Notes: generated by a model from the sequence alone, not told the origin. Shown: positions 29,557 through 49,344, counted from the first letter of the stretch. The stretch is 64,000 bases of DNA from Sulfurospirillaceae bacterium (GCA_028684065.1 JAQUGO010000007.1:39507-103506); one strand, 5' to 3'. A program made the numbers and translations.

Positions 29557-29557
29557 G

Positions 29558-32772: not shown

Positions 32773-33903
32773 CTAAGCAATTTTTTTGGCTAACACAATA
32801 TTTGAGTCATATTGCTGTATAAAAGGATAAATATCTTTTGCAATGGATTCAGCTAGTGATGAAAATTCAATAAGCAAAATTTCCAACGACTTGATTTTAT
32901 CTTGATGATTAAAAATCTTTCTACTTAAATCTGGAACATTGAGATTATCTCTAAAAGAATAATTCGTGAATAAAAGATAAAGAAAAGCTCTGATTTTTTC
33001 CACTAAGCCTACTCTCATATTGTATGGTAAGTATAATTCTTGCTCCATGTGATATGCTATGGATGCTAAATCGTAACTTGAAAGTTTTTTTGCTGCATGT
33101 TGTTTGTAATCAGGCATATCCGCTACAATATTTTTCATCAAACGAATTACGCTACGTAAATTACCATTATAAATATCATCCCTATCTGATATTAGCTTGA
33201 TATGTTTAAATGGTAAATTTAATTCCAACTCATGAGTGTTTTTATGGTAAATTTTTATTCCTCTATCTGATTGTTGCCTAGTTTGTTGATAATCACGTGT
33301 ATCGTACCATGATGCTGGAACAATATCCACTTTTCTTAGCAAACTTCCTTCACTTAATTTGATAGCCTTATTTCCCGTACAATCAATATTGGCTTGCGGA
33401 AAATTTTTAGGCAAAATGTTTTCTGAATTTAAGCGTATATCTTTAATAACATCCACCATAGATCTAGGGGTACTAGGTGATGAGTACATATGTGGGAATA
33501 TTTCTGGGACTTCAACTATCACTAAATCCTCATAAACTATAAGCATATCGACGTCGGAGTGACCTTTAATATGAACATCCAATGCAACAGAACCTTGCAA
33601 CTTAGCTGTAGCATTAATTCCTCTAAGTGCCAAACTTTTAATTAAGCTATCGGCGACCCTTTGCCCTTCAGATATAGAAATATTTGTTGATTTTTCATCA
33701 ACAGGAGCCATTCCACCAATAGCATATTTTATACTATCTGATTCGTTTAGAGTTTCATATATTTCTTGTTTTCTTAAATCCTGTCCAGAGAAAAGGGCAT
33801 AATTTTTTGACAATAAATCTAATTGGGACTCATATATTGCTCGTTCTTTTGAGCCTTGCCTCCTTTCTTTTAGTGAGGCTAATCGTTTTTTAAAGTCAAT
33901 CAT
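32773..33903 (-). CDS. SMODS/CD-NTase-like nucleotidyltransferase (CBASS cyclase-like)
   Basis: The Pol-beta NTase pattern GS...DxD is seen as LQGSVALDVHIKGHSDVDMLIV. A third acidic residue is in the context KVDIVPA. Confidence 0.6.
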   Translation of the reverse strand: MIDFKKRLASLKERRQGSKERAIYESQLDLLSKNYALFSGQDLRKQEIYETLNESDSIKYAIGGMAPVDEKSTNISISEGQRVADSLIKSLALRGINATAKLQGSVALDVHIKGHSDVDMLIVYEDLVIVEVPEIFPHMYSSPSTPRSMVDVIKDIRLNSENILPKNFPQANIDCTGNKAIKLSEGSLLRKVDIVPASWYDTRDYQQTRQQSDRGIKIYHKNTHELELNLPFKHIKLISDRDDIYNGNLRSVIRLMKNIVADMPDYKQHAAKKLSSYDLASIAYHMEQELYLPYNMRVGLVEKIRAFLYLLFTNYSFRDNLNVPDLSRKIFNHQDKIKSLEILLIEFSSLAESIAKDIYPFIQQYDSNIVLAKKIA

Positions 33904-34495
33904 TATTTATCCTTTCTATATTCATAATTCCAAATGTTTTTCGACCGTTATTATTAAAATATGAAGCATCTCCAACTGCTATTGATTTATCAATAACTAT
34001 TTGACAATATCCTTTGTGTGCATTTAACTCATGCGATTGCTCAATGCGTGGCTCATTTTTATAACTGTAGCTTAATAACCACTCTCCAAAACCATGTTGC
34101 TTTTCCAAGGTTGCCGTTTGACTAAAACTTTGACTTTGCTCAGTTTTCAAACAAATCGCTACATGTTTCCATGTCTGTTCAATAGCTATTATGGCATTCC
34201 AATCATATTTGGTTGATCCATCTTCGTTTAAAGCTTTTCCTTTTACATTCCATGTCCCAGCAAGATTTGGTATTTTAAAAAATGGTAATTTCCAAGCCCA
34301 ATTATTAAATATCCAATGCAATATAAAATATACTACACCTGTTGCTACTGTTGCTTTTGTAAATGCTTCTAAACCAGTCCAGCTATATGAAATTATAAAA
34401 ACCTGAGAAATCCCTCCAGATATCAATATTGCAAAAACTCCCAACCACCGACCTATTGCTACTCTATCATGTCCAAATATTGCATAATCGTGCAT
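33896..34495 (-). CDS. 2TM + beta-rich effector (S-2TMbeta / Cap15-like)
   Basis: Two N-terminal TM helices (WLGVFAILISGGISQVFIISY and VVYFILHWIFNNWAW), then a beta-strand-rich C-terminal half. It overlaps the cyclase start by 8 nt. Confidence 0.5.
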   Translation of the reverse strand: MHDYAIFGHDRVAIGRWLGVFAILISGGISQVFIISYSWTGLEAFTKATVATGVVYFILHWIFNNWAWKLPFFKIPNLAGTWNVKGKALNEDGSTKYDWNAIIAIEQTWKHVAICLKTEQSQSFSQTATLEKQHGFGEWLLSYSYKNEPRIEQSHELNAHKGYCQIVIDKSIAVGDASYFNNNGRKTFGIMNIERINND

Positions 34496-34830
34496 TATCT
34501 ACCTACCATCTTATTGATAAATCTATCTATTAAACCAATCCAATATAAAAAATAGACAACAAAAATTGATAAAACGAGGGATAGGACAAAATAGAACTCT
34601 TTAACATAAAGGTAAATTAGTGTTGCTAAGATAGGCAAGATGACTGCCAAAAATGCATTTTCAGTTAGCTTATTTTTGGTTTTTTCCCTTAAATTGAACT
34701 CAAAAGCGATATCGTGCCTTAGAATGGAAACACCTATTGCTAACACAAGTATGAATGTGATTAACCAAATATTATTTTCAAATATTTTGGTAAAGTGATT
34801 GATTATGATTGCTCCAAAGTCTGGTACCAT
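34495..34830 (-). CDS. small 3-TM membrane protein
   Basis: Three hydrophobic helices. Its stop overlaps the start of the 2TM-beta gene (TAATG). Confidence 0.4.
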   Translation of the reverse strand: MVPDFGAIIINHFTKIFENNIWLITFILVLAIGVSILRHDIAFEFNLREKTKNKLTENAFLAVILPILATLIYLYVKEFYFVLSLVLSIFVVYFLYWIGLIDRFINKMVGR

Positions 34831-34873
34831 GATTTCTCCTCTTGTAATTTATTACAATAGAAGTATGGCATAA

Positions 34874-34899
34874 GTAGAAGCGGAATAAATCGCTTCTAC
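34874..34899 (-). terminator. 9-bp perfect hairpin just downstream of the WYL gene
   Basis: GTAGAAGCG (34874-34882) pairs with CGCTTCTAC (34891-34899), with an 8-nt loop. The T-tract is weak. Confidence 0.4.
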
Positions 34900-34904
34900 T
34901 CTAA

Positions 34905-35819
34905 TTAAATATCTGATTTTGTGTAGTTAGCGATATTTTCGAAAATTTTTTCATGAATAAAAAGAGGCGAGATGACTTTAATATAGGGCAAATACTGTTG
35001 AATCGTAGGGATAATTTCCATTTCATCGGTAATCCAAATATCAAGTTGGTCATAAGTTTCGTCATGCTTTGTTATATGTTGTGAGGCTGAGAGTGGCTGT
35101 CGTTTAAAATATTTGCTAACCTGCTTGTGTACTAAAAGTTTTACAGGAATCAGCTCGGCATCTTTAAAATATGCGTTTATTGCGTTATCAAGATGTCCGA
35201 TGACTCTATTTTCGGGGATGGTGAAAGTTTCATCTTGCAAAGAGAGTACTTCTAAACTTTTGAGATGGTATGTTCGAACTTCTTTATTATCGGTGTCCCA
35301 TAGAAACAAGTACCAAAATCCCTCCAAAAGTACAATTTTTAAAGGATAAACGGTTCTATCTTTGTCTTTATATCTACATGTAAGCACTTTATTTTGAGAG
35401 ATAGCTGTTTTGACGATTGCAAGTTTTCCTTCATCGTCTTTTTCAATTTTTTCAATTTTTGTTTTTTTATAAATAGTCAATGAGGCTCTGCGTTTAAAAC
35501 GATTAAAAAGCCTTTGAGTAGAGAGCAAAAACTGTTTTCCATAACTATTTGCATGGTGTTCAAGCACCCTCATGGTGATTAATTCGTCTTCACTTGATAG
35601 TGTTTCATCCAGGAAGCCTCTTTTGGCTATCCATTTTTGAATACTTTTATCGAATCGTATCTCTGCTATTTCTATAGGTACTAAGTATTTTTTGATATTG
35701 TCTTGAATAGTTTTTTCAGGTATGGCGTATTGTTTGCTGATGGTTGGTATGTGTATTGGTTGCCCATTTGATAATTGTCGCAGTAATTTTGGTAAAAGAT
35801 CGATAATCGTTTGATTCAC
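34905..35819 (-). CDS. WYL-domain transcriptional regulator (HTH-WYL-WCX; CapW/BrxR-like)
   Basis: VYPLKIVLLEGFWYLFLWD is the WYL motif. N-terminal HTH-like region. GTG start overlaps the DUF2779 stop (GTGA). Confidence 0.7.
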   Translation of the reverse strand: MNQTIIDLLPKLLRQLSNGQPIHIPTISKQYAIPEKTIQDNIKKYLVPIEIAEIRFDKSIQKWIAKRGFLDETLSSEDELITMRVLEHHANSYGKQFLLSTQRLFNRFKRRASLTIYKKTKIEKIEKDDEGKLAIVKTAISQNKVLTCRYKDKDRTVYPLKIVLLEGFWYLFLWDTDNKEVRTYHLKSLEVLSLQDETFTIPENRVIGHLDNAINAYFKDAELIPVKLLVHKQVSKYFKRQPLSASQHITKHDETYDQLDIWITDEMEIIPTIQQYLPYIKVISPLFIHEKIFENIANYTKSDI

Positions 35820-37300
35820 GATGTAACCTCTTTCAATTTTTCAAGTACCTTCACCATCGCTAAAGTATCGAGTTCACAATACTTCAACAACTGCTCTCGC
35901 ACTTTCATTTGCTCTGCAAAATTCTTTACATGTAAAGATGCAAAGGCGTTCATAGCATCGCCACCGTTTTGGATGCCCTCAAGTTTTTTATAGGACAATT
36001 CCATCTCAGGTACGAGTGCAGGAAGGACATATTTGATGGAGTAACTGCCTTGCATGCTTGGGGTGACATAGTGTCCTTTTTGAAAAGGAAGCATTAAATC
36101 TTTGATGGTGTCATGTAGGTGCATAAGCTTAGTTGACAAGTCTGGAAACAGCTGGGCAAGTGAGGCGATAACGCCTTTTTCAAAGCTCATATTGTATGTC
36201 AAAATGTTTACATGTAAAGGTATGTCTTTGACCAGTTTTTCAGCTAAAGCTCGTCTTGGGTCAACTCCTGCTTCTGCTAAAAATGCTTTATGCTCTAAAG
36301 TGCCATCACGGTGTTCTACATGTAAAGAGTATTGAAACGGTATTTGTTTGTAAGGACTGACACCGCTCCACAAAGGAATGGCTTGTTGAAAGGTCTCAAA
36401 GTCGAGATGATAGATGGGATAGGTGAGTGTTTCTAAAAACTCAGCGATTGCCTGATGGTCAATGAATGTGTGTTGCTTTTTCCAGTTATCGACCTTTTGC
36501 CATTGGATGGTAGTCATCGCAAAGTCTTCGGGTATAGCTTCGATAGCCACGATGTTTTGCGCATAAAGCTCTTGTTGTTTTTTACTGCCAAGATTGAAGA
36601 TATTGAAGATGCTGTACTCAGGGATATTTCGCTGAACTTTCCAACAATACGCCTTTGCATCACACTCATACGGGTCATTGCACTGTTTGCCAATGTCGAT
36701 GTTTGGCTCATGGACTTTATCGTTCAGATACGCCTCAAACGCTTCAAGTCTCGCAGGAATTGCGCCTTGCAAATCTCGCACTTCACCTGTGACATCGACC
36801 ACCACAAAAAGCTTTTCAAGCTCCAACGCTTCTTCTCGTACATAGCCTGAGTTGATATGCACCACATGACACGCCCCAACCCTAAACCCAAGGGCCTCTA
36901 AAACATACAGCTGAATGGAAACATCATGCAGATAGATAGGCTTTACATCGGTGGAACTCTTCACTTCATAAAGCTCTAAGCCAAGAGGTGTTTGGCACAA
37001 GATGTCCACCATCACTACGATGCCTTCAAAGATAAATGTCGCCTCGTAGATGTTCTCCATACCCTCATCAAGATACGCTTGAGTCAGCCTCGCCATGCTT
37101 TTAAAATCTTGTGCATCAAAAGGTATTTCACGCCCATCAGGAAACAATTTACACGCCAAATCCCCCACGATGTTACCCGTCTCAAACTTTGCTTTGGCAC
37201 TGGCATCTGGTGGGGTTAAAACCTCTGGCTTGCATTTTTTAAGCCAGAGGGATTTTGGACATTGAATGGCTCGGGTGTAGAGGGATTTTGAGAGGGTCAT
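35816..37300 (-). CDS. DUF2779 protein (Cas4/RecB-like PD-(D/E)xK N-terminal half with Cys cluster; DFET-containing C-terminal half)
   Basis: N-terminus MTLSKSLYTRAIQCPKSLWLKK is typical of DUF2779. Cys cluster CNDPYECDAKAYCW. YHLDFETFQQAIP in the second half. The ATG at 37300 is preferred over the track's TTG at 37309. Confidence 0.65.
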   Translation of the reverse strand: MTLSKSLYTRAIQCPKSLWLKKCKPEVLTPPDASAKAKFETGNIVGDLACKLFPDGREIPFDAQDFKSMARLTQAYLDEGMENIYEATFIFEGIVVMVDILCQTPLGLELYEVKSSTDVKPIYLHDVSIQLYVLEALGFRVGACHVVHINSGYVREEALELEKLFVVVDVTGEVRDLQGAIPARLEAFEAYLNDKVHEPNIDIGKQCNDPYECDAKAYCWKVQRNIPEYSIFNIFNLGSKKQQELYAQNIVAIEAIPEDFAMTTIQWQKVDNWKKQHTFIDHQAIAEFLETLTYPIYHLDFETFQQAIPLWSGVSPYKQIPFQYSLHVEHRDGTLEHKAFLAEAGVDPRRALAEKLVKDIPLHVNILTYNMSFEKGVIASLAQLFPDLSTKLMHLHDTIKDLMLPFQKGHYVTPSMQGSYSIKYVLPALVPEMELSYKKLEGIQNGGDAMNAFASLHVKNFAEQMKVREQLLKYCELDTLAMVKVLEKLKEVTS

Positions 37301-37301
37301 T

Positions 37302-39653
37302 TTACTCAACTTCTAAATATTTATCTTTGAAATTAACATGTTTTGTACTAAGTCCAAATTTTTGAAATTTATAACGCATATATGCAGACATCATATCTTC
37401 GTGAGTAGATATAAAAATTTGTCTATCTGCAAACTCATGTCTTAATAAATTAATAAAACCTGCAATATTTAATTCATCAAGGGTTTGTATTGGGTCATCA
37501 ATGAACAACAATTTATTCCTTGAATATCTTTTGTTTAGTGCTAAAGTAAATGCAATAATTAATGTTGCTAATTGTCCTGAACTCATGGTGAAAACAGCAT
37601 CGTAATCATGTGTAGTTGGGTGTTTTTCAAGAAAACGAATCCCATTAGCATCTGACTTGATAAACAATCCAAGACCATTTTGATAATCTTGTGCAATACG
37701 GCCTGAATAAATGTGAAATAAAATTTCCAAGTTTTTAATGAGGCTTTCTTGATAGTTATTCAGCGAAACAACATAAACTAATTTTAGTTTATTTAGCTTT
37801 TTACGCAGTTTATTCGCATTATCATATTTAGCTCTTTCTATATCATATTGTTGTTGCAACCGTTGTGCTACAACATTTTGATGTAATGAGTATTCCCATT
37901 GGATATACTTTATTTTTTGGGTAATTTGTTCATGGCTAACAGTTTGAATATATTCTCTATTCTGCTCAAAAAAACGTAAATAGTAGTCAGAAAAATATGG
38001 TCGGATTTTTTCAGAGTCAATAGGTGATTTTCGCTCTTTTACCGTTCGACTAATGGTTTCTACAAGTTCACTTGTATCAATTAAATACTCCGCTCTATTT
38101 ATTAGTGTATCAATCGGTATGTCATTATGAATAAACTCAGAGTATAGACCATCTAAGTTTTCTCTATTCTTGACTGCGCCTTGTAGAGCGATAATAAATT
38201 CTATATCTATAGGATTTTCTTTTTGATACTCTAAAATGAAACTTCTTATTGGCTCTATATATTTTATGTTGAATTCATCTACTAAAAGTTTAAATTCGGT
38301 TCCAGTTGAAGAAATCAATGCGCTCAAAGTGCTACTCTGACTTTCAAACTTTTCTCTTAATTGTCTAATGTCTTCCCAATCGAAACCACACATAGGGCAA
38401 GTACTACTATTCTCCGATTCTGACTGATAATCTGTAAATTTTGCGATAAAAATATTGCGGGATTCAATAACATTCTGGAGTAATTTCTCAAGAGTAGTGG
38501 CACTAGTATAAAGCTTACGAATCTCTTCAATCGATTCATGATAATCATCGAGATTAACAAAAGTTTTTACCAGTTCACTAAATGATGATTGGATTACTAG
38601 TTTATTGGTATTGATAGCTACAACGACACCCATATCGTAAATATTTTGGATCCATTGAGATATGGATTTGTGTAGTTCTAGTTTCGATGAGAGTTCTTCT
38701 GATAGATCAAAAAAATATGCAAACTGTAAAATTTGCGGTATTTTTTCTGTTTGGGATAGTAATGCATCAAGTTCATCATTGTAAAGTTTTTTTTGAAATT
38801 CTTCAAAATTTGTTATAAAAAAATCGAGTTTTGAAAGTTCTCCATTTTCACCTAACCAGTGAGTATATTGTTCATCATTGAAAGTAAGTGTTGTAACATC
38901 CCAATTTATATCTTTCCAGGTAATGATTCTTGTGTAAGGGACTTCTTCAGTTTCTCTTGCCAGCTCCTCAAACAATTGATTAAGTTTGGCTTCTTTTTCA
39001 TCCAGTGCTGCCTTTGTCATTGGATTACACAAAGAGCCTAGTTTTCGATGAGCCCCATCTAATGTATTAATACGTTGTTGGAAGTCTTCAGTATTGAATA
39101 AATGAGCAATACTTGCTATTCTATCTTTATCTTTATGTTTGAGTAAATAAATATTTTCTTCTTGTTCAATATAGTTCAAAAACTCGAAATTTCTTATATA
39201 GTCTGTACCAAAATACTGTTGGAGGAACTGTTGTTCATTTTCCACCAAAGTACCCTGATCATTGTCAAAAGATAGCAGTCTATAAAGGGGTAATCGAAAA
39301 CCGCTTAAACCGCTTGCATTAATGACATCTCTACTTTCCTTCCTCATCAACGAAATGATGGTGCCATCAATATCTAATTCTCCTTTTATTACCAAATCAC
39401 CTTCAGTTGTTTGATCATTAATTAGTGGATTTCCATTTCTGGTTTCTCGACCATCGATCACACGATGTGACAAATCTGAATATCTACGTAATTGACCTGT
39501 GATTAGAAGCTCTATGGCATCATAAAATGATGTTTTTCCAAATCCATTCGGACCGTCAAATACAACCAAAGATGGATCGTTAAATTCAAGTAAAGGGAAA
39601 TTTTTAAAAAGTTTAAAGTTATCAATTTTTAGTCGTTTAATTTTAATTGCCAT
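37302..39653 (-). CDS. lmuB: SMC/Rad50-like ABC ATPase, Lamassu LmuB (DdmC-like)
   Basis: Walker A FDGPNGFGKTSFYDAIELL, a long coiled-coil middle with CPMCG, signature SSGQLATL, and Walker B LLFIDDPIQTLD. Confidence 0.7.
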   Translation of the reverse strand: MAIKIKRLKIDNFKLFKNFPLLEFNDPSLVVFDGPNGFGKTSFYDAIELLITGQLRRYSDLSHRVIDGRETRNGNPLINDQTTEGDLVIKGELDIDGTIISLMRKESRDVINASGLSGFRLPLYRLLSFDNDQGTLVENEQQFLQQYFGTDYIRNFEFLNYIEQEENIYLLKHKDKDRIASIAHLFNTEDFQQRINTLDGAHRKLGSLCNPMTKAALDEKEAKLNQLFEELARETEEVPYTRIITWKDINWDVTTLTFNDEQYTHWLGENGELSKLDFFITNFEEFQKKLYNDELDALLSQTEKIPQILQFAYFFDLSEELSSKLELHKSISQWIQNIYDMGVVVAINTNKLVIQSSFSELVKTFVNLDDYHESIEEIRKLYTSATTLEKLLQNVIESRNIFIAKFTDYQSESENSSTCPMCGFDWEDIRQLREKFESQSSTLSALISSTGTEFKLLVDEFNIKYIEPIRSFILEYQKENPIDIEFIIALQGAVKNRENLDGLYSEFIHNDIPIDTLINRAEYLIDTSELVETISRTVKERKSPIDSEKIRPYFSDYYLRFFEQNREYIQTVSHEQITQKIKYIQWEYSLHQNVVAQRLQQQYDIERAKYDNANKLRKKLNKLKLVYVVSLNNYQESLIKNLEILFHIYSGRIAQDYQNGLGLFIKSDANGIRFLEKHPTTHDYDAVFTMSSGQLATLIIAFTLALNKRYSRNKLLFIDDPIQTLDELNIAGFINLLRHEFADRQIFISTHEDMMSAYMRYKFQKFGLSTKHVNFKDKYLEVE

Positions 39654-40347
39654 CTTCAGATTCCTCCACTAAAGGTGATAACCTTGTTAATAGTACTTCT
39701 GCTCCAATATCATCTAAATCATCTAAATCTATAGAAAATAATGCCTCATTAAAACCATCCAAACTATCATCTGTATGTGCTGATAAGGCCGCTTGATTCT
39801 GGCTAAATAAAGATTCAAGACTTTCATTCTCATTGACATTTATATTTATAAAAGGCACTTTCATAGCCATACGATACATTAGGGCTTGCCAACTTTGTAT
39901 CATAGAATTGTTTTTATAAGTCTGAAAAGCTTCTTGAGATGGAATATAATTGTTAAAAAATTCTGTAATAGGTTGTCCATCTATTTGCATTTGTAACTCT
40001 GTCAACTCAACGTTAGAAAAATATAGAACATGCTTTTTAAAAAAATATGGGTCTTCTTCTATTGCTATTAACTGCTTTTTCATTGTATGTAGCTGAAGGT
40101 TTACACCTGTGTCCCACAGAATGAGCATTGATAAGTTTTTATCTAGTTCTGGTGAAGTTTCAATTTGACTGCACTCTTCAAATAAGCCTGCTTGTGACGC
40201 CCGAATTGATGATAATTGTTCAGCGGTAACAACAAGCCAAAAATCTGTTTTCCGACTTTGTGCATTTAATTTGAAAAGAGTGTAGTTACCAATTGGGGCA
40301 TTTGTATAGCCATAGGCTTCAAATAATTGAGCTATTAGTTCATTCAT
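39643..40347 (-). CDS. lmuC: Lamassu middle component (LmuC/DdmB-like), acidic C-terminus
   Basis: The call rests on position between the nuclease and the SMC gene, with overlaps on both sides. No diagnostic motif. Confidence 0.45.
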   Translation of the reverse strand: MNELIAQLFEAYGYTNAPIGNYTLFKLNAQSRKTDFWLVVTAEQLSSIRASQAGLFEECSQIETSPELDKNLSMLILWDTGVNLQLHTMKKQLIAIEEDPYFFKKHVLYFSNVELTELQMQIDGQPITEFFNNYIPSQEAFQTYKNNSMIQSWQALMYRMAMKVPFININVNENESLESLFSQNQAALSAHTDDSLDGFNEALFSIDLDDLDDIGAEVLLTRLSPLVEESEDGN

Positions 40348-41581
40348 TTATTTCCCTTTTTGCGTTTTCTAAAGACTTTAATGTAACCTTTTTCCAGCCC
40401 ATGATATGTTGATGCACCTTTGGATCGAACTTTGCCAGTACTTCTGGTGAGGATATTGAATCTATATCAATATCTGTGGTGATGATATGACTACCTTCGA
40501 ACATTACGTCCAAATCATTATCAAGGGCATTTTGGATAATGTCATTACATATTTTTTTACTATGAGAATGCCCTAGATTAATTGAACTTGGAGCGTATGA
40601 TTTATGTGAGGACGTCCATTGCAAGAAAATTAAATTATGATAGGTGGGTATGTTTTTTATCTCGGACAGTATTCTGAAGAATCCATCTTTAATTTCAGTG
40701 GATTGAATTGCCTTGTCCTTGTAATCTGCAATAGTCTCAAATTTAAAAGTACGATGAGGCATTATATTTTTAATAAAACGTATAATTTGAGCTTTATCAA
40801 AATCATTAATTTCTTTTACAACTGCATAAAGTCTCTTCAAATCGCTCTCTTTCAAGTCATCTTCATTTTCACTACAAAACTCCATGAAATAACGGCGAAA
40901 ATCTCCTAATAAAAGATAAAAGTAATAGTCGTTCTCTACTCTTTGATTAAGATCTTCTTGTATCAGATCAAGGAATATTTGTAGAGGTATAATCTCTTTA
41001 TATGCAACCTCTGTCTCTGGTGCCATGCTAGCGTGAATTTTCCCATGAATCGCCAAGATTTTTTCCGTAATAACTTGATCTAAATAAACACGTACTTTAC
41101 AAGCATAATCCATTGAGTGTTTTGAGGGGTCACCAGCATGATATACATGCAGTAATTTAATCAATTTTTCTTCAATTTTTTTATCAATTTCATCAACTGG
41201 ACAATAGTCGTTACTGCCATATTTATAAATCTTTATTGGAGAGAATTCATTTTCAATATCTGCAATTGATTTATTAGTAATATTTTTTGCTAAATGGAAG
41301 CAAGCATTTTGGCAATTTTCACTTGTTATTTTGCTTTTTAGTTTAATGAATTCAGAACAATAAGTACTAAAAGATTGGCTCTTTAACGCTTTAATTTGGT
41401 GCATGGATACGACATCCCTATTAGCATCTAATATGGCAAAATCTTCCAAACTATCAAGTTGCAAAACATAGTCTGAATGATCTAATAGTGTAAGAGCATG
41501 ATAAATTGCGACTTTTCCCTGGTAGATAAAGCCACTCCAACTTGTTATTGCAGTATGTGGATATAAAATATTATTTGACAT
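40340..41581 (-). CDS. lmuA: Cap4-nuclease/DUF4297-type effector, Lamassu LmuA (DdmA-like)
   Basis: N-terminal WSGFIYQGKVAIYHAL ... LEDFAILD ... HQIKALK fits the DUF4297 PD-(D/E)xK pattern (GF.YQ ... ED ... Q.K). Confidence 0.6.
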   Translation of the reverse strand: MSNNILYPHTAITSWSGFIYQGKVAIYHALTLLDHSDYVLQLDSLEDFAILDANRDVVSMHQIKALKSQSFSTYCSEFIKLKSKITSENCQNACFHLAKNITNKSIADIENEFSPIKIYKYGSNDYCPVDEIDKKIEEKLIKLLHVYHAGDPSKHSMDYACKVRVYLDQVITEKILAIHGKIHASMAPETEVAYKEIIPLQIFLDLIQEDLNQRVENDYYFYLLLGDFRRYFMEFCSENEDDLKESDLKRLYAVVKEINDFDKAQIIRFIKNIMPHRTFKFETIADYKDKAIQSTEIKDGFFRILSEIKNIPTYHNLIFLQWTSSHKSYAPSSINLGHSHSKKICNDIIQNALDNDLDVMFEGSHIITTDIDIDSISSPEVLAKFDPKVHQHIMGWKKVTLKSLENAKREINE

Positions 41582-41602
41582 TAAAATCCTTATTTACAAA
41601 AT

Positions 41603-43957
41603 TCACAACTCCACAACTCTTTCAAACATCTCTTTAATCTCCATCTCATGAGAAATTAAAAATATCTGTCTATAAGATTCACTAATCGTATGAAACGCTT
41701 CCATAATGCGGATGCGTCTCTCCTCATCTTGACTTCCGAAGACTTCATCGAAGGCTAAAAATCCTACGTTTCCTCCACCGCTAAGTTCTCCTAGTGTTTT
41801 GGAGATGGCGATGCGAAGCACTAAGTTAGCGAGGTCTATTTCACCTCCGCTAAAGCGTTCTATGGGGTATTTGATACCGTTGTCGTAGATGAAGAAGTCA
41901 AACTCTGGGCTGACTTCTATGTGTTGGTAACGACCTCTGGTAATGCGTACGAACATCTCACTGGCTACTTCACCAATGCGTGGTGCTACTCTTGCGTTGA
42001 TATGCGTTTTAAACTCCGCCATAATCTCTTTTAGCTTCACATAATCACTTTGGTCTTTCTCTTTGGCTTTGAGTGCCTCTCGTAGTTTGGCATCACGCTC
42101 GATATCTTTTTTGAGTGCTTCGATGTCACGAACGATATTGGACTGCTCAAGGGCGGTTTTATGCATCAGTTCAGTATGTGCTTCTTTTTGTTTTTCAATA
42201 CGTGTAGTTTCTTCTATAGCTTTGGTGTGTATTTCTTCTTTGTAAGTATCCGCACTGAGAAGATTTTGATACTCTTTAAGCTGTACTTGATCAGTTTCTA
42301 ATTGCTTTTGAAGTGCACTCAAGGCAGTTGTTTTTGAAGGTATAGTGGCGATAAGTGCTTCGAGCTTGAGCAGTTCATCGACTTGAGCTTTGAGGGTTTT
42401 ATGCTCCGCTTTTAAGTGCTCATGAGCTTTTTCATCATAAGTGATGATGCCTAATGCTTCTAGGGCTTGTTTATTTGCTTTACCTCTGATTTCTACTTCA
42501 TTAAAAAGTGTTTGTGCTTTGGCAAGGTCTTGAGTTTTACTGGTAAGTAAGGTTATTTGCGTGTTGGTTGCGTTATAAATCCGCTCTGCTTCTTGAACAA
42601 TTTTCTGCTGTGCTTTGTGTAGTTCTACTTTTACATGTAAAGATTTTGTGGCTTCGTCTATCTGTTTGGAGATGACCTCGTTTATATCTTTGGTTAAAGA
42701 GGAGAGGACATTGTCGTATTGATCCAGCAGTGGTCTGGTACATACAGGACATGCCGAATCACGACCTAGTTTTGTGATGCCATCAACTTTATCTTTGGTT
42801 TCGACTATCTTTGCATTTTGGGTTGCGATATGAGTTTTAATCGCATTCATCGCCTCTTCAATACTTTGTAATGTTGCTTTTTGTTGCGTAAGGGTTGTGT
42901 GCTGTTCAGCGAACTGTTTTTTGAGCGTTTCAAGAGGTTCTATCTCTTTGGAAAGTGTTGCAACTTCTGCTTTACGACTGGTAAATTCAATGCGAAGTTG
43001 CACTTGTTCTTTTTCTAAGGCATCTTTTTTAAAGTATGCTGTTCTGAAATTGTCTTGTTCATTTAGAGATTTATCAAATGTAACTAGTTTGGCTTTGAGC
43101 GGGAGCTCTTTTTCATAGGCGGTTTTCTTTACATGTAAGGCTTTGAGTTCTTCGTCAAGATTTTTAAGTTGTTGCTGATGAATGGTGATACCTTGCTCTG
43201 CTTTGGTCACAGTTTGAGCTTTTTGAGTTTTGGCTTCTTTGGCTTTTTGCTGAAGCTCAACGGCTGTTTTCGCACTCTCATGGGTAAGTTTGATTTTTTG
43301 ACTTTCAGCTTCAAAGGTTTTAAATTGTGCTACTAAAGTTTTAAGTGTTTCCTCTTTTGAAACTTGCTTTACATGTAAAGCTTTAAGAGCCTCTTCGCTC
43401 ATAAGTTGAGTTGAGTCGTTTTTTATATCACGGTTAAGATCACGCAATACTTCACGGATCATAGCTTCAATCTTATCTATCTTCTCCAGTCCTAAAAGAC
43501 GGCGCATCATAGTTTTACGCTCATCATTTTTCATGGAACTAAGAGCTGTGAGTTCTTTTTGAGACGCAAAAACAGTGTGTAAGAAAGCTTCTTTTCCCAT
43601 GCCAAGTAGTTTATTGATAGCGATGGTGACTTCTTTCGCACCTGTTGTGGTTGTTTCTTCGCCACATTTTAATGAAGCATATGCGGTCATCACACGGCCA
43701 CGAAACTCACGGATGCTGGTGTACTCTTTTTCGTTGATATAAAAGCAAAGTTCTACTTTGACATTACCTTCCGCACCTGAGGTTTTCAAGAGTTCTTTAT
43801 TTTTATACTCACCATACAAGGCGAAAAAGACTGCTTCAAAGATAGTGGACTTTCCACTGCCATTACGTCCTAAGATGCCACAAAGTCCTTCTTCAAAAGT
43901 CATCTCGAATGAGGGGTAACGCTTAAAGTTTTGAAGAGAGAGTGTTTTAAGCGTCAT
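41603..43957 (-). CDS. sbcC: SbcC/Rad50-like ATPase
   Basis: Walker A ILGRNGSGKSTIFEAV, a long coiled coil with zinc hook CPVC, signature FSGGEIDL, and Walker B LAFDEVFGSQD. Confidence 0.8.
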   Translation of the reverse strand: MTLKTLSLQNFKRYPSFEMTFEEGLCGILGRNGSGKSTIFEAVFFALYGEYKNKELLKTSGAEGNVKVELCFYINEKEYTSIREFRGRVMTAYASLKCGEETTTTGAKEVTIAINKLLGMGKEAFLHTVFASQKELTALSSMKNDERKTMMRRLLGLEKIDKIEAMIREVLRDLNRDIKNDSTQLMSEEALKALHVKQVSKEETLKTLVAQFKTFEAESQKIKLTHESAKTAVELQQKAKEAKTQKAQTVTKAEQGITIHQQQLKNLDEELKALHVKKTAYEKELPLKAKLVTFDKSLNEQDNFRTAYFKKDALEKEQVQLRIEFTSRKAEVATLSKEIEPLETLKKQFAEQHTTLTQQKATLQSIEEAMNAIKTHIATQNAKIVETKDKVDGITKLGRDSACPVCTRPLLDQYDNVLSSLTKDINEVISKQIDEATKSLHVKVELHKAQQKIVQEAERIYNATNTQITLLTSKTQDLAKAQTLFNEVEIRGKANKQALEALGIITYDEKAHEHLKAEHKTLKAQVDELLKLEALIATIPSKTTALSALQKQLETDQVQLKEYQNLLSADTYKEEIHTKAIEETTRIEKQKEAHTELMHKTALEQSNIVRDIEALKKDIERDAKLREALKAKEKDQSDYVKLKEIMAEFKTHINARVAPRIGEVASEMFVRITRGRYQHIEVSPEFDFFIYDNGIKYPIERFSGGEIDLANLVLRIAISKTLGELSGGGNVGFLAFDEVFGSQDEERRIRIMEAFHTISESYRQIFLISHEMEIKEMFERVVEL
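43366..43381. repeat. 16-nt perfect palindrome GCTTTACATGTAAAGC (longest instance of the iterated TTACATGTAA motif)
   Basis: Read directly from the sequence. See the finding on the iterated palindrome. Confidence 0.95.
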
Positions 43958-45065
43958 CGTTTACCTCGTCATACTGTGCAAATAGCTCAGTGACTTTAGC
44001 ATTTAGGCGTTCAAACTCATTTTCATCTCCACTTTGCTCTTTGAGGAAAGAGCTAAAATACTCTTGCAAAGAAGCAGCATTGACTGATTCTGAACTTATA
44101 GAGCTTTGAGTTTGAGCAAATTTGCGTTGTATCTGAACACTAAGTGCTTCAGGGAAAATTCCTTCTATATCACCATTGGCGATGTCGATAGACTGCGTAA
44201 TGGTTAGATTTTCAAGAGTGATGTAAAGAAGTGCTCCTTTGGTAACATCGGCATATTCCTCAAGCTGGAAAATGACATCTTTGGTTGCATCAATATTGAG
44301 TCGATAACTTGGGCGTAATGCGATGGTTTGAAGGTTTACATGTAAAGCTTCATCAAGTTCAACACATGCATAGCCTTTATCAATACGAATATCATTGCTA
44401 CTGGTACGCTCAGTTGATCCTGCATAGTAAACATTTGGGTGTTTGCCAACTTTGCCAAAGCCATGCCAATGCCCTAAGGCGACATAATCCATTTTAGAAA
44501 ATAGTGATTCTTTATCGTGAGGATAGACACGCTCACCATACTCTTCCATAATATACTTTTGCCCAACGGAGCAGTGAAGCATCATAATGTTTCGTTTGCC
44601 CTCAACTAAGGAGTTTTCACAAAGCTCTATGGCTTTAAGATTTTCCATTTCATCGTTAATGTGTGGAATACAATGAAAAACAACATCCTCAAATTCCACC
44701 TTTTCATAGGCTTCTTCAAAAACAGGATAGACATAGTCTAATGTGCGAAGAGCTAAAAGTATAGGTGAAGCAGTGCGTGTGCGAGGTGTTGAGTGATTTC
44801 CTGCGATAATGATGGTTTTTATCTGTGCTGAACTTAGGCGTTTAAGTTGTGTAAGAGCGAAACTAATAGCGCGGTTTGATGGGTGAGGACGGTGAAAAAG
44901 ATCACCCGTGTGAATGACATAGTTAGGTTTATCCAAAAGAATAGCATCAATGACTTGTGTAAATGCATCGTAAAAGTCAGCCTCTCGCTGATTGATACCT
45001 GCTTCATTAATGGCGTCTAAATCGTTAAAGCCTAAATGCGTATCCGAAAAATGAATCAATCTCAC
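43947..45065 (-). CDS. sbcD: SbcD/Mre11-like nuclease
   Basis: Motifs HFSDTHLG, HTGDLFH, GNHS and LGHWH. It overlaps the sbcC start by 11 nt. Confidence 0.85.
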   Translation of the reverse strand: MRLIHFSDTHLGFNDLDAINEAGINQREADFYDAFTQVIDAILLDKPNYVIHTGDLFHRPHPSNRAISFALTQLKRLSSAQIKTIIIAGNHSTPRTRTASPILLALRTLDYVYPVFEEAYEKVEFEDVVFHCIPHINDEMENLKAIELCENSLVEGKRNIMMLHCSVGQKYIMEEYGERVYPHDKESLFSKMDYVALGHWHGFGKVGKHPNVYYAGSTERTSSNDIRIDKGYACVELDEALHVNLQTIALRPSYRLNIDATKDVIFQLEEYADVTKGALLYITLENLTITQSIDIANGDIEGIFPEALSVQIQRKFAQTQSSISSESVNAASLQEYFSSFLKEQSGDENEFERLNAKVTELFAQYDEVNDDA

Positions 45066-45127
45066 GGTGCTTCTTTATGATTATTTGCATTGATTATAGC
45101 AAATATTAAACTCATTAAATAATAAAA

Positions 45128-48100
45128 CTAAACTTGTACGTATTTTTGATTAAAATATAATTGACTATTATCAATAAATTTTCTAATTATATTTGTATTT
45201 CTATTTTGATCGTTCAATAGGCTGTTTTCGTATTCAACAATTTCATTTTGCTTTTTTTCAATTGACGAAAAATCAATCTCAGGATGCATGAAAGCAAGGC
45301 TTTTTAAATCTATTTTGATAGCTTCATTGATTTTTTCACTAGAATCAATTCGAAGTCTACTAGGGTCACTTGACCTAGAGGCTGCAACATAAAACTGTGA
45401 AAATTCAAAGGTGGAATTAGCACTAACTTGTGCAACATTAAGTGACATCCCCTGAGATTTATGGGTAGTAATCGCATAGGCTAGTCTTAAAGGATATGCT
45501 TTAACTTTTGTGTTGTGCTCTTTACCATATTTATCTATCCATTCACTTTCAAAAACTTTTCGATGAATAATCACCTCTTTACCTGTCCTATCAAGTTTGA
45601 TTTTTAATCTTCCCTCTTCTTCTTTCATAAAAACACCTCGGTCTCCATTTACAAATCCTTGGCTATGATCATTTTGAAGTAACATTACCTGTGCGCCCTC
45701 TTTTACAACAAGTGAAGAATCAGGAGGAATTTCTTTATGGATTCTCTCTTTTTCATCTTTAGTAAGCGATTTTCCTTCCTCAAGAAAATATTTTGGTGTT
45801 AACTTGATTTCTTTTCCCTCTAACTGTGCTAAACGAATAGCGTTTCTTTGTGCTACTTCTCTATTGGTATTAAAAATAAATGTAGCATCGGCGTCATTGA
45901 TAGGAGTATCTTTAAAAGATTGAAAGTAAGTGACTATTTCTTGGCTGGATTCCCCATAGCGCAATCGATTGAGCATTTCAACAAACTTCTGTTTTTTTGC
46001 ATCAGCATCTCCGACACGTTGATTGCCAATCAATTTCAGCGTCTGAACACTTTTTTCTTGCCAAAAATCACTCTCGTATGCATAGCGCTTAGTAGCGTTT
46101 TTATCTTTTTCTATCGCAGGAAGCTGTAGAAAATCCCCAACAAATAAGAGTTTACCCTGCCAGCCGGCTTGCTTTAGGCGATAATTAATAAGTTCCATTT
46201 GATTTCTATGCACCATACTTATCTCATCTATAATAATAGTATCTGTCTTTTTGATTTTTAATATAAGCTGTTCTAGCTTTTTTTGATTTACTTTATCTAG
46301 CTTTTCAAGCTCCTCGATATCTTTACAAATACCTATACCAAAAAAACTGTGTAATGTTCTACCGTTAATATTAACAGCAGCAATCCCAGTTGAAGCTAAA
46401 ACTTGAACGTTTAAACCTTTAGCCTGCTCTGCTGCTATGATTTTTTTAGTCGTGAATGACTTACCCGAACCTCCTTCACCCGTTAAAAAAAATGCACCTT
46501 GCTTTGCTTGTGTTATTTTTTCAAATACTTCTTGCTGGCTTAAGCCATTTTTGCTTCTATTTTTTAAGGCTTGTTCAATAAATGTATGTTTGAGATGTTC
46601 AAGTTCAAGTTTTTCAACATTGATTTTTTCAATCAGCGCTCTTCTTTTTTTGAGCACTGTTTTAAGTTCTGTATCTTTTGGAAGAATAGCTGCTAAGCCA
46701 TTGGCATTATTGTGTTTTGCATTCTTGGGTACTTCTATTTCACTTTTGAAAGAGTATGTATCATTGCGATTGATTTCTTTTAGTGTTTTAAAATTATATT
46801 CTAGTTGTGATCTAATGTGTGGCCATGATTTAAAATTTGTACTGCTATATAATAGGAGATGTTTTTTATTGTAGGCATCCGTTATTTGTATGCCAATTTT
46901 TTGACCATTTTTTGTTTTAATTTTAACATCATACCAGCATTTGATTGTCAATAATTCTTTGACTTCTTTTTCACTTCTTGCCTGCTTGATAACGCAATTA
47001 AAATCGCCATTGAGCGCTTTTAAAAGTGTCATTTTAGGTGATACAAGTGTATCGTTCAGTTGTATATCCCTCTTATATCTAGCCATTTCGAGCTGCGTTT
47101 TAATGGGTATTTTTTTTATATCTTTAAATTCATCTCGAATGAGGGGTTTTTGAATATTGTTTAGATTGAAATCTTGAATCTGAAAATTTTGAAACGTATA
47201 GCCTCTTTTCGAAAGCTCGGTGATGACGGGATTTTTAAAACCAGCGACTACATGCTCAAAATACGCTCGTGAAATTTTATTGTTTCGGTCTTCTAAGAGT
47301 GCTTGTATTTCTTCTGCTGAGCCATTTTTTAAGGTAATTATTGAATCAATTTGCGCTTGTGATAAATGAAGAGGGTAACATTCTTTTAAATTATACCCTC
47401 TAAAAATAAAATTGATATTTTGTCTAGCAAGTCGATCTTTGAGAGATGCAACTGTTTTGAGATAATACTGGATATTTTGACTTTTACCATAATCGTCTAT
47501 CAGAGACTGAAAATCATCAATCCGCTTTGGTTGTACTATCCATTTTGCAAAATCATAATCATTTAGAGATTGAATTTTCCAAGAGAAAGATGTTAGAAAA
47601 CTTCGGCTTTCCCTCACTTTAACTTCTTTGTCTTCCATGAAATGAAAAACTAAATTATGCCTGCAAGCCAGTTCTGCTACTCCAAATAAGATACTATTAT
47701 AGGCTTGTCCGAGTGTTGAATTGTTATTATCAAAGATCATATGGATGTGTGGCTCGACATCATAACTGAATGGAGAGTGCTCTTCATCAAAAACGTTTAT
47801 TTTGCCATACGGCACCGATTCTAAATTGCTATTTAAATTCTCATTACTTATGCCTCCATTGGCACCACCACCTGTACCCCCAAATGAAGAGTTATGATAA
47901 GCACTTAGCGCTTTAGAAAAGTCAAGATGTTGGGCTCTAAATAATTTTGTACCGTTTTTAGAAAGACCTTTTGATTCAACCCACTCCCAATTTTGGCAGA
48001 TAAGATCTTGATGAAATTCAAGCATCTTTTTATCTATTGCTTCAGGGCTTATAAAACCCTGTGCTATTAATTGAGCTTTATCGATAGAAAATACAAAGCG

Positions 48101-48211: not shown

Positions 48212-48278
48212 AAAGATTGTGGTGTTTAAACGACTGCGAAAGCAGCCGTAAGTCGAAGCCTTGAGACCAAAAGATTTG

Positions 48279-48300
48279 CCCCCCTAGATTTTGAGGGGGG
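48279..48300. promoter_or_regulatory. GC hairpin CCCCCC-N10-GGGGGG upstream of the relaxase-like gene
   Basis: Read directly. It is the only G/C homopolymer pair I noticed in this AT-rich region. Confidence 0.5.
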
Positions 48301-48341
48301 AAATAGCTCAAATTTAAAAAACAGCGAACGAACGTGAGTTT

Positions 48342-48543: not shown

Positions 48544-48552
48544 ATGTTATTT

Positions 48553-49335: not shown

Positions 49336-49344
49336 CTTTTAACC

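Follow-up and report, generated by a model that had tools for sequence, protein, structure and literature searches.

A Lamassu triad, a DUF2779 gene and a WYL-CBASS cassette as probably independent modules of a Campylobacterota defence island

Genes and junctions of the array

The ORF call places five co-directional genes at 34905-41581 on the minus strand of the window (the whole stretch of 64,000 nucleotides that was analysed), and all features named below lie on that strand. In reading order they are LmuA (40340..41581), LmuC (39643..40347), LmuB (37302..39653), a DUF2779 gene (35816..37300) and the gene of a WYL regulator (34905..35819). Upstream lie the genes of an SbcD/Mre11-like phosphoesterase (43947..45065; Pfam Metallophos, 1.8e-12) and of an SbcC/Rad50-like ATPase with a CPVC zinc hook (41603..43957; Pfam AAA_23, SMC_N and SbcC_Walker_B).

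The sequence-only reading had described five genes without intergenic space, and its junctions were all found again in the coordinates. LmuA and LmuC overlap by 8 nt and LmuC and LmuB by 11 nt; the LmuB stop codon (TAA, 37304-37302) is followed by a single A and then by the DUF2779 ATG at 37300; and the GTG start of the WYL gene, with an AGAGG Shine-Dalgarno sequence 7 nt 5' of it, overlaps the DUF2779 TGA as GTGA. What needs correction is where the gap-free array begins, which is before LmuA: the SbcC-like gene ends 21 nt upstream, and SbcD and SbcC overlap by 11 nt. The tight packing is therefore a trait of the whole island and not of these five genes. A structured spacer of 74 nt lies 3' of the WYL gene. 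Judged from the junctions, the five genes are plausibly co-transcribed; one transcript may well serve them, yet we do not consider them a dedicated five-gene system.

The first three genes are supported as a genuine short type II Lamassu of the ABC-3C / DdmABC-like kind in the order A-C-B, as had been proposed from the sequence; the PADLOC and Pfam assignments hold. LmuA (413 aa) comprises a Cap4-like PD-(D/E)xK nuclease N-domain and CTD1 (PADLOC LmuA, 5.7e-23; Pfam CTD1, 2.5e-38). The DUF4297/Cap4 pattern claimed for it stands in part: the Pfam Cap4_nuclease match is below threshold (19.2 bits vs 26.2), but the motif D47...Q62-x-K64 is invariant in 11 homologues, the invariant residues being G17, Q21-G-K23, D47 and H61-Q-x-K64. 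LmuC, the ABC-3C middle component 1, is an acidic protein of 234 aa (pI 4.2) that matches Pfam MComp1 above threshold (3.2e-12). LmuB, an SMC/Rad50-like ATPase of 783 aa with one CPxC zinc hook, passes the LmuB profile (PADLOC, 9.2e-60), failure of which had been named as a refutation of the proposal; the PDB matches of its own profile are Rad50 heads. Its invariant residues are the Walker A G34-T41 (K40), Q164, C419-P-x-C422, SSGQ 691-694, D719-D720 and H751.

The V. cholerae DdmABC / Lamassu Vc-Cap4 system and ABC-3C systems with MComp1 and CTD1 have the same LmuA-LmuC-LmuB order with short overlaps, and the triad shares with short type II Lamassu the Cap4-like LmuA N-domain with its D...QxK motif and CTD1, the MComp1 LmuC and the Rad50/SMC-like LmuB ATPase with the Walker A K40. 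The CPxC zinc hook is a difference, being reportedly absent from the V. cholerae protein (PMC12663957). By analogy with the published Lamassu mechanism (PMC12663957), an LmuB dimer and LmuC would hold LmuA as a monomer, and the complex would sense DNA ends or replication intermediates; ATP-driven release would then let LmuA oligomerise into an active Cap4-type DNase, and the infection would be aborted. Lamassu relatives elsewhere are stand-alone three-gene units: the full triad occurs in 74 of 91 LmuB loci, and plasmid Lamassu loci, only 25-33% identical to the window triad, stop after LmuB. Unlike known short type II Lamassu, the window triad occupies a cargo slot, with an SbcCD paralogue immediately ahead of it.

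A swappable interval between SbcC and DUF2779

This slot, slot 1 (37305..41600), holds the triad and a 21-nt leader and is delimited by the break in DNA homology and by GC3. It extends from the SbcC stop codon, where homology ends at 41601, to the DUF2779 start, where homology resumes; among the loci homology begins at the DUF2779 ATG itself, the preceding 70 nt being unrelated. GC3 is 0.31-0.35 in SbcCD, 0.23-0.26 in slot 1 and 0.45 in DUF2779, and it steps from 0.23 to 0.45 to 0.30 across the two DUF2779 borders.

The closest relatives exchange the SbcC-DUF2779 interval for unrelated cargo between flanks that are 80-93% identical, which contradicts the proposal that DUF2779 and WYL extend Lamassu. 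The window SbcD is 84-85% identical to that of loci L196 and L197 (DNA homology 45064-41601), SbcC is 80% identical to these two and 88% to L186, and DUF2779 is 92-93% identical in all three (DNA homology 37304-35826). Across 37305..41600 neither L186 nor L197 has any DNA homology to the window, and both flanks align at 79-90%. In L186, DNA homology is confined to 42281-41601 and 37304-32833 (SbcC 88%, DUF2779 92%, WYL 82%, Cap15 84% and CD-NTase 77% identical), and slot 1 holds an unrelated MComp1/SMC834 Lamassu and a SMEK_N NTPase. L197 and L198 have the same frame; their slot 1 is filled by OLD and HamA/HamB (Hachiman), their slot 2 by a phospholipase C. In L196 (SbcD 84%, SbcC 80%, DUF2779 92%) the Lamassu proteins are only 44/39/45% identical, a DUF3223 gene is inserted ahead of DUF2779, and a dGTPase gene takes the position of the WYL gene. 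More distant frames carry as cargo Qat (pACRY43158), MBL with Hachiman, OLD, type I Lamassu, GajA-like with GmrSD, and NACHT; in all, no fewer than eight kinds of defence cargo other than this Lamassu were seen immediately upstream of DUF2779.

We therefore read the interval as a mosaic of three independent modules, namely Lamassu cargo, a DUF2779 scaffold gene and a WYL-CBASS cassette, and put the probability of this at about 80%. The sequence-only reading amounts to a five-gene Lamassu variant in which DUF2779 is a coupled second nuclease effector and WYL an in-operon Lamassu regulator. We regard this as very improbable, although the gap-free junctions agree with it and a metagenomic contig (L094) repeats the arrangement SbcD-SbcC-LmuA-LmuC-LmuB-DUF2779-WYL with -4 overlaps at both junctions, DUF2779 being split there into two ORFs. 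Lamassu also precedes DUF2779 in L093, L196 and L186; however, other genes follow LmuB and separate it from DUF2779 in all three (two genes in L093, DUF3223 in L196, the SMEK_N NTPase in L186). Since the Lamassu of L196 and L094 is only 39-46% identical to that of the window, whereas the DUF2779 of these frames reaches 66-92%, this cargo was acquired separately. Moreover, L197, with a DUF2779 93% identical, has no Lamassu, and L196 has no WYL gene. The survey of LmuB homologues that had been suggested gave the same answer: DUF2779 lies downstream of LmuB in only 2 of 53 loci (those with at least 1.5 kb of downstream sequence), and none of 87 DUF2779 loci contains a homologue of the window LmuA, MComp1 or LmuB.

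Several observations are to be set against the mosaic. Co-translated partners would be expected to show junctions like the 1-nt gap and the 4-nt overlap; the five-gene arrangement does recur in L094, and the order Lamassu then DUF2779 in L093, L196 and L186. Each of these four recurrences stands on the SbcCD...DUF2779 scaffold.

Defence cargo between conserved flanks is familiar from P2/P4 prophages and from integration hotspots of E. coli and Vibrio. The locus shares with such hotspots the conserved flank genes, the interchangeable cargo and the sharp homology breakpoints. It differs in three ways: an SbcCD paralogue and a DUF2779 nuclease serve as the flanks; only a single gene separates two neighbouring slots; and cargo and frame run together in one gene array, at junctions of 0-12 nt, so that they probably have transcripts in common. 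Full-text searches of a paper collection found no description of the SbcCD...DUF2779 scaffold.

The WYL regulator and its downstream cassette

The WYL gene, the first of slot 2, encodes a regulator of the wHTH-WYL-WCX type (304 aa from a GTG start; Pfam WYL, 1.3e-11; PADLOC WYL, 1e-22). Judged by the gene neighbourhoods of its homologues, it goes with the downstream cassette and not with Lamassu or DUF2779, which also speaks against a five-gene Lamassu variant. These homologues (45-82% identical) head co-directional CBASS, Pycsar, McrBC or lipase cassettes: in 7 of 7 contexts a co-directional defence-type cassette follows 79-99 nt downstream, the upstream genes are variable or absent, and in 5 of 7 there is no DUF2779. 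In the window, WYL, a leader (34831..34904), a 111-aa protein with three TM segments (34495..34830), the two-TM CBASS effector Cap15 (33896..34495) and the CBASS cyclase CD-NTase (32773..33903) constitute a type I CBASS cassette in slot 2. Cap15 matches Pfam Cap15_CD_rec (5e-36) and Cap15_TM (1.4e-11) and the PADLOC 2TM effector (3e-70); CD-NTase matches PADLOC Cyclase (9.9e-127) and is 77% identical to that of L186, whose DNA homology stops within this gene, at 32833. The three-TM protein, with no Pfam or PADLOC match, is 41-46% identical to its equivalents in L186, L187, L188 and L189, and it accompanies WYL in both CBASS and Pycsar cassettes.

The leader is defined by conservation and RNA fold (-24.8 kcal/mol, z = -5.7). 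It contains a hairpin (34873-34900), whose pairs show compensatory changes, and a box, ACTTATGCCATACTTCTA, at 34858-34875, which occurs once in the window, between the WYL and CBASS genes. CUUCU in the box is predicted to pair with the AGGAG Shine-Dalgarno sequence of the next gene, and RNAalifold predicts this helix. Six homologue loci (L186-L189, L191 and L192) share the conserved leader whatever the cargo, with box substitutions in L188 and L191 and the greatest divergence in L192; in L194 the box diverges. That this WYL-linked element is found only downstream of WYL is a further point against the five-gene variant. We know of no downstream cis element with a Shine-Dalgarno-sequestering helix described for CapW or BrxR, and the locus differs from both in having one.

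Like CapW (CBASS), BrxR (BREX), WYL-DE (DdmDE), DriD and PafBC, the protein is a WYL regulator of about 300 aa, and its gene, like those of the defence-associated members, stands first in a co-oriented defence cassette. Its family profile aligns with PafBC and DriD from end to end, whereas with BrxR and CapW the match is confined to the WYL domain; by profile it is closer to the former pair. A WCX extension (PF25583) is on record for the homologues and not for the window protein itself. In contrast to the defence-associated regulators, its gene in the window lacks an intergenic region on the upstream side, since the start codon overlaps the end of DUF2779. Defence-associated WYL regulators respond to a single-stranded-DNA cue (PMC9122601, PMC11662680, PMC13622015), and by analogy with CapW, BrxR and DriD this one probably senses single-stranded DNA and controls the cassette that follows.

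DUF2779 and the frame of the island

The DUF2779 protein (494 aa from the ATG; Pfam DUF2779, 3.3e-45) is predicted to combine a Cas4-like 4Cys PD-(D/E)xK nuclease with a DEDDy-type 3'-5' exonuclease in one protein, the same domain reading as in published work (PMC3985635, PMC13621843). The earlier description of a Cas4/RecB-like half and a DFET-containing second half agrees with the invariant residues C14, D99, E112-V-K114, C207, C213, C219, D300-F-E302-T, N370..E374 and Y474..D478. All four cysteines are invariant, and only the spacing given for them was wrong: the cluster is C14...C207-x5-C213-x5-C219, not C...C-x5-C-x6-C. The N-terminal half shares the four-cysteine cluster and D...ExK with Cas4/AddB/MGME1-type nucleases, and the C-terminal half shares DxE, N..E and Y..D with DnaQ-like DEDD exonucleases; unlike either group, DUF2779 fuses two nuclease domains and has no CRISPR context. 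A search of the PDB gave no sequence-level match, and the best fold matches of the AF2 model (pLDDT 82), to Cas4, MGME1 and RNase H-like proteins, are all weak (E > 1e-3). The likely chemistry is DNA-end processing, possibly with SbcCD.

Two oddities are left, and both weigh against the mosaic. DUF2779 abuts any preceding gene (a distance of at most 12 nt in 32 of 66 co-directional cases, whatever the gene type), which could reflect a partnership with defence operons in general; and WYL neighbours are enriched 14-fold around it relative to LmuB (28/87 vs 3/91 loci within 7 kb; odds ratio 14, p = 2e-7). The enrichment spans phyla, and a WYL gene heading its own cargo covers it for Campylobacterota only.

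A rival reading is that DUF2779 is a general accessory hub of defence islands, turning the DNA breaks left by SbcCD or by nuclease-type systems of the first line (Lamassu, Hachiman, OLD, GmrSD, Qat) into single-stranded DNA, the ligand through which neighbouring WYL regulators would switch on second-line cassettes such as CBASS. In addition to the two oddities, WYL and DUF2779 are direct neighbours, in either order, in Beta-proteobacteria, Lachnospiraceae and Campylobacterota, the Firmicutes loci L053 and L055 have SbcD-SbcC-DUF2779 beside a divergent WYL, and WYL regulators sense single-stranded DNA made in restricted infection (PMC11662680, PMC13622015). Nevertheless, we find this unlikely: two thirds of DUF2779 loci have no nearby WYL, L196 and L197 (the closest DUF2779 relatives besides L186) have none in slot 2, the WYL homologues mostly do without DUF2779, and the quasi-essentiality of the DUF2779 gene in Mycoplasma JCVI-syn3.0 suggests housekeeping DNA metabolism (PMC13621843).

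Somewhat more credible, if still doubtful, is that SbcD-SbcC-DUF2779(-dGTPase) is an ancestral defence or repair operon into which Lamassu and WYL-CBASS were inserted; DUF2779 would then have SbcCD as its functional partner rather than the genes next to it. An analogy is offered by the end-resection operons of archaea (Mre11-Rad50-NurA-HerA). A cargo-free SbcD-SbcC-DUF2779 exists in L053 and one with a single extra gene in L055; DUF2779 and dGTPase overlap by 4-8 nt in L008, L009, L010, L015 and L032 and by 14 nt in L196; and conservation is far higher in the frame genes than in the cargo. On the other hand, only about 11 of 87 DUF2779 loci have SbcCD within 7 kb, and the DUF2779 gene of Sulfurospirillum sp. 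1612 is solitary, with an intergenic region to itself. An ancestral operon is compatible with the mosaic and does not oppose it.

Under the mosaic reading, the three modules would be packed head to tail in one co-directional array of a Campylobacterota defence island that sits on a mobile element. The SbcCD-like pair and DUF2779 would form its conserved frame, and the short type II Lamassu would be the cargo of slot 1, whose borders coincide exactly with the stop codon of SbcC and the start codon of DUF2779. DUF2779, left without promoter space, would probably be expressed by read-through and termination-reinitiation from the upstream cargo, and the cassettes are probably swapped by homologous recombination in the conserved flanks.

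Five abutting genes and the Lamassu triad

We believe, with a probability of about 0.8, that this locus combines an ordinary Lamassu, which occupies a cargo slot, with a scaffold nuclease (the DUF2779 protein) and the WYL head of a CBASS cassette, in that order. The sequence-only reading had joined the triad, DUF2779 and WYL into one five-gene Lamassu system; this is not supported, considering that the closest relatives swap the cargo of slot 1 (the interval from the SbcC stop to the DUF2779 start) and that WYL follows the cassette downstream of it.

ORF calling returned the five minus-strand genes at the positions first read: LmuA at 40340-41581, the middle protein LmuC at 39643-40347, LmuB at 37302-39653, DUF2779 at 35816-37300 and WYL at 34905-35819. 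LmuA overlaps the middle protein by 8 nt and the latter overlaps LmuB by 11 nt; a single A separates the LmuB stop TAA (37304-37302) from the DUF2779 ATG at 37300; the DUF2779 TGA overlaps the WYL GTG (GTGA), and the WYL ribosome-binding site AGAGG lies within the DUF2779 3' end. Thus, the packing of the five genes without gaps stands, but its restriction to these five does not, since the array extends upstream: the stop of an SbcC-like gene (41603-43957) precedes LmuA by 21 nt and this gene overlaps SbcD (43947-45065) by 11 nt. A 74-nt spacer with a strong hairpin lies 3' of WYL. The window contains 57 promoter-like and 6 terminator-like sites, where chance predicts 59 and 9.5, respectively, so the scan is uninformative on internal promoters. 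Junctions without gaps do not define a system in a defence island; here they join three separable modules within a larger island, in which DISARM-like genes are present as well.

The assignment of the triad to Lamassu (type II / ABC-3C) is confirmed by matches to the LmuA, LmuC and LmuB profiles. LmuA matches PADLOC LmuA (5.7e-23) and the Lamassu C-terminal domain (Pfam CTD1, 2.5e-38); its score against Pfam Cap4_nuclease (19.2 bits) is below the cut-off of 26.2, it matches no PDB sequence, and its nuclease motif D47...H61-Q-x-K64 is invariant in 11 homologues. LmuC (234 aa, acidic, pI 4.2) matches Pfam MComp1 (3.2e-12; 46.6 bits, cut-off 27.3). LmuB (783 aa), an SMC/Rad50-like ATPase for which failure against Lamassu profiles had been considered, matches PADLOC LmuB (PDLC03859) at 9.2e-60 over residues 1-771, as well as Pfam AAA_23 and SMC_N. 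In its alignment with plasmid homologues (A2) the Walker A (K40), Q-loop, SSGQ, Walker B and H-loop are invariant and a CPxC zinc hook is present; the family profile matches Rad50 heads in PDB. Single-sequence PDB searches gave no match for LmuA, LmuB or DUF2779, spurious designed proteins alone for MComp1 and PafC alone (5e-3) for WYL, so that profiles were required (LmuB, WYL); similarly, a megablast of 34400-45100 against plasmids found nothing, and protein-level searches were required. In Vibrio cholerae, the LmuA1B2C1 complex binds DNA ends, LmuA becomes active on oligomerising, and LmuB K40 and LmuA K57 are essential (PMC12663957); by analogy, the system in the window would act by the same mechanism.

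A replaceable cassette on a two-slot scaffold

The proposed extension of Lamassu by DUF2779 was approached from both sides. The LmuB survey spanned plasmids, metagenomes and viral contigs, and 74 of its 91 loci contain the complete triad. In the closest plasmid homologues (Catenovulum, Bacillus, Pseudoalteromonas and Vibrio), the three genes and their overlaps are as in the window, and in plasmid examples LmuB is followed by a non-coding gap or a convergent gene, i.e., the A-C-B operon stands alone. In 53 loci the sequence extends 1.5 kb or more beyond LmuB; DUF2779 lies downstream in only two of these (L093 and L094), and both have SbcD-SbcC immediately upstream of Lamassu. Conversely, none of 87 DUF2779 loci (7 plasmid and the best 80 of more than 590 genomic ones, from many phyla, 42-67% identity) contains a homologue of the LmuA, MComp1 or LmuB of the window. 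Every co-occurrence of DUF2779 and WYL with this Lamassu was found on the SbcCD...DUF2779 scaffold and none beyond it. The five-gene arrangement of the window recurs in a single other contig, L094, where DUF2779 is split into two ORFs. The same split is observed in L016, L056 and L093; it could represent pseudogenisation or an assembly error.

In Campylobacterota, a frame SbcD-SbcC-[variable genes]-DUF2779-(dGTPase) recurs. The cargo of slot 1 is Qat in pACRY43158, an MBL protein with Hachiman in L009, an OLD nuclease in L032, type I Lamassu in L013, a GajA-like ATPase with GmrSD in L014, and a NACHT ATPase in L001 and L016. The closest relatives decide the matter: in three of them the frame is strongly conserved, but the two slots differ. 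In L186 (SbcC 88% and DUF2779 92% identical, SbcD not covered), slot 1 encodes proteins of 98 and 246 aa, a 191-aa MComp1, an 834-aa SMC protein and a SMEK_N NTPase, and slot 2 (the cargo after DUF2779) contains WYL (82%) and then CBASS (Cap15 84%, CD-NTase 77%). In L196 (SbcD 84%, SbcC 80%, DUF2779 92%), slot 1 carries a Lamassu only 44/39/45% identical together with DUF3223, and slot 2 begins with dGTPase and has no WYL. In L197/L198 (SbcD 85%, SbcC 79%, DUF2779 93%), slot 1 holds OLD and Hachiman and slot 2 begins with phospholipase C.

DNA homology between the window and L186 is limited to 42281-41601 and 37304-32833; with L196 and L197 it covers SbcD-SbcC, breaks, restarts just before the DUF2779 ATG and stops at 35826-35831, just before the WYL start. 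GC3 is 0.31-0.35 in SbcCD, 0.23-0.26 in Lamassu, 0.45 in DUF2779, 0.30 in WYL and 0.21-0.31 in CBASS; these steps agree with a mosaic. Taken together, the homology breaks, the differing cargo and GC3 mark the Lamassu triad (37305-41600) as a discrete cassette that can be replaced. Between two variable slots, DUF2779 forms an island of conserved sequence, and the locus has the conserved flanks, variable cargo and sharp breakpoints of a defence-island hotspot. The idea that recombination uses a conserved site upstream of the DUF2779 start was considered and rejected: inter-locus similarity begins at the ATG, and the preceding 70 nt are unrelated between loci.

Lamassu triads are also found right behind SbcD-SbcC paralogues in several unrelated contigs (L125, L126, L144, L093, L094, L196 and the window), three of which have no DUF2779 within reach. 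The placement is curious given that Lamassu has been proposed to have evolved from SbcCD (PMC12663957); a simple alternative is that it may reflect the same cargo slot.

Several slot 1 genes of unknown role lie directly before DUF2779: a protein of 581 aa that matches neither Pfam nor PADLOC in L008, DUF3223 in L196, the SMEK_N/NPHP3-type NTPase in L186 and a 954-aa NACHT protein in L001/L016. Their position in the slot makes them candidate defence genes.

The DUF2779 protein belongs to PF11074 (3.3e-45), a very large family, for which more than 7,500 of the scored candidate proteins reach E <= 1e-20; its closest homologues of named source, in Sulfurospirillum and Sulfurospirillaceae, are 78-82% identical. 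Essentially no DUF2779 was found in phage genomes, where the only matches are C-terminal fragments in prophage-like records of Helicobacter heilmannii. The four-cysteine pattern initially read holds, but the spacing x5/x6 was incorrect (C14...C207-x5-C213-x5-C219). The division into a Cas4-like nuclease half and a DEDD exonuclease half is supported by invariant residues and by weak but consistent fold matches: C14, D99, E112-x-K114, C207, C213 and C219 fit a Cas4-like 4Cys PD-(D/E)xK nuclease, and D300-x-E302, N370...E374 and Y474...D478 fit a DEDDy exonuclease. The AlphaFold2 model has a mean pLDDT of 82, with low confidence exactly at the two cysteine segments; Foldseek against PDB gave no match at E <= 1e-3, and the best meaningful matches (Cas4, MGME1 and RNase H-like folds) are all weak. 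The model thus lends weak support to Cas4-like and RNase H-like domains; the Cas4-like plus DEDD exonuclease reading agrees with PMC3985635 and PMC13621843.

The WYL regulator and the cassette behind it

The WYL protein matches Pfam WYL (1.3e-11) and is of the wHTH-WYL-WCX type, the WCX extension (PF25583) being recorded in its homologues. The family profile (A4) aligns with DriD and PafBC across positions 5-305; its matches to BrxR and CapW are confined to the WYL domain. Homologues with 45-82% identity occur in seven independent contexts. The gene upstream is DUF2779 in L186 (82%; Cap15 CBASS follows) and L194/L195 (45%; a lipase and phospholipase C pair follows), a type I restriction HsdR gene in L187 (75%; Pycsar), HsdS in L191 (59%; patatin CBASS) and other genes in L192/L193 (56%; RmuC and McrBC); L189/L190 (73%; Pycsar) and L188 (68%; patatin CBASS) have their own intergenic region upstream. 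Accordingly, the upstream gene is variable, and a co-directional defence-type cassette starts 79-99 nt past the WYL stop in all seven contexts (74 nt in the window). For this clade, WYL as a DUF2779-specific partner is rejected, as five of the seven contexts lack DUF2779.

The cassette contains a CD-NTase (32773-33903; PADLOC Cyclase, 9.9e-127) and the cyclic-nucleotide-receptor effector Cap15 (33896-34495; Cap15_CD_rec 5e-36, Cap15_TM 1.4e-11), with no Cap2/Cap3 or HORMA/TRIP13, which corresponds to type I CBASS. We conclude that WYL heads this system (32773-34830) and infer, by analogy, that it would control it; ssDNA-sensing defence-associated WYL regulators are well documented (PMC9122601, PMC11662680, PMC13622015).

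The spacer after WYL contains a leader (34831-34904, minus strand) with an 11-bp hairpin and a box, in which CUUCU is predicted (by RNAalifold) to pair with the Shine-Dalgarno AGGAG of the next gene; the RNA fold has -24.8 kcal/mol (z = -5.7). Regardless of cargo, six of the seven contexts share the conserved spacer (L192 being the most divergent of the six), with the consensus TAAAGCG-N6-8-CGCTTTTAC-TCATGYCATACTTCTA; in L194 the box diverges. The leader precedes Cap15-CBASS, patatin-CBASS, Pycsar and RmuC/McrBC cassettes. Its box occurs once in the window (34858-34875), with no second copy upstream of SbcD or Lamassu, and no Rfam family matched anywhere in the window, the leader included. It is a conserved candidate cis element.

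The next gene (34495-34830, minus strand) encodes a small protein (111 aa, three predicted membrane helices) that matches nothing in Pfam or PADLOC. It is 41-46% identical to the product of the gene between WYL and the effector in four other CBASS/Pycsar cassettes (L186-L189), and looks like a fixed part of the WYL-headed cassette type.

Right downstream of CBASS, a DISARM-like set (19270-32551, minus strand) includes a DrmD-like SNF2 helicase (29558-32551), a DrmMI-like methyltransferase (25738-29595), a PD-Lambda-3_A-like 186-aa protein (25181-25741), a DEAD helicase of 1725 aa that carries an MZB (DUF1998) domain (19270-24447) and a DUF4160 protein. A 1285-aa STAND-type NTPase (3784-7641, plus strand; DUF4062, NPHP3_N/nSTAND1, TPR repeats; no PADLOC match) may be a further defence gene. 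Mobile-element features, including a 1027-aa Pif1/RecD-like helicase and a weak match to a T4SS coupling protein, are found at 45128-51161 and 14804-16684 (both minus strand); a 253-aa protein (49345-50106, minus strand) looks ParA-like from its sequence. Probably, the window belongs to a plasmid or an integrative element from a Sulfurospirillum- or Sulfuricurvum-like bacterium.

DUF2779 partners and significance

The gene upstream of DUF2779 is co-directional in 66 of 78 loci and, whatever its identity, lies at most 12 nt away in 32 of these 66. Full-length WYL regulators within 7 kb were found in 28 of the 87 DUF2779 loci (7 plasmid and the best 80 of more than 590 genomic) vs. 3 of the 91 LmuB loci; in raw counts, the densities are 2.97 and 0.34 per 100 kb (odds ratio 14, p = 2e-7). 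The two genes are directly adjacent, in both orders, in Diaphorobacter, Lachnospiraceae and Helicobacteraceae, and in Acutalibacteraceae SbcD-SbcC-DUF2779 is accompanied by a divergent WYL. These associations allow for a functional tie among DUF2779, SbcCD and the expression controlled by WYL; we rate it as doubtful to improbable, depending on the form that the hypothesis takes. In one form, which we consider improbable, DUF2779 would be no passive scaffold gene but a hub nuclease shared by defence islands, translationally coupled to many first-line systems; acting with SbcCD, it would convert broken invader DNA into an ssDNA signal by which neighbouring WYL regulators switch on second-line abortive systems such as CBASS.

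Other partners of DUF2779 were also observed. Seven Firmicutes loci (L044, L056, L064, L065, L069, L085 and L087) combine it, in shuffled gene order, with a WYL regulator, an AAA/AAA_lid_6 ATPase of ~660-680 aa and an unannotated family of 190-278 aa; in L007, L021, L023 and L027 the partner is a double-AAA+ ATPase (Cdc48-like, IetA-like).

The main value of the analysis is a corrected annotation. Beyond it, the two-slot scaffold SbcD-SbcC-[slot 1]-DUF2779-[slot 2] is shared by Sulfurospirillum, Sulfuricurvum, Sulfurimonas, Arcobacter-type bacteria and their plasmids, and WYL with its structured leader and small membrane protein forms a portable regulatory head before CBASS and Pycsar cassettes. 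Both appear undescribed in the literature searched, but each exemplifies a known kind of organisation. The cross-phylum statistical association between DUF2779 and WYL is a link worth testing; were the hub reading true, first-line DNA cleavage would be linked to the induction of second-line abortive systems.
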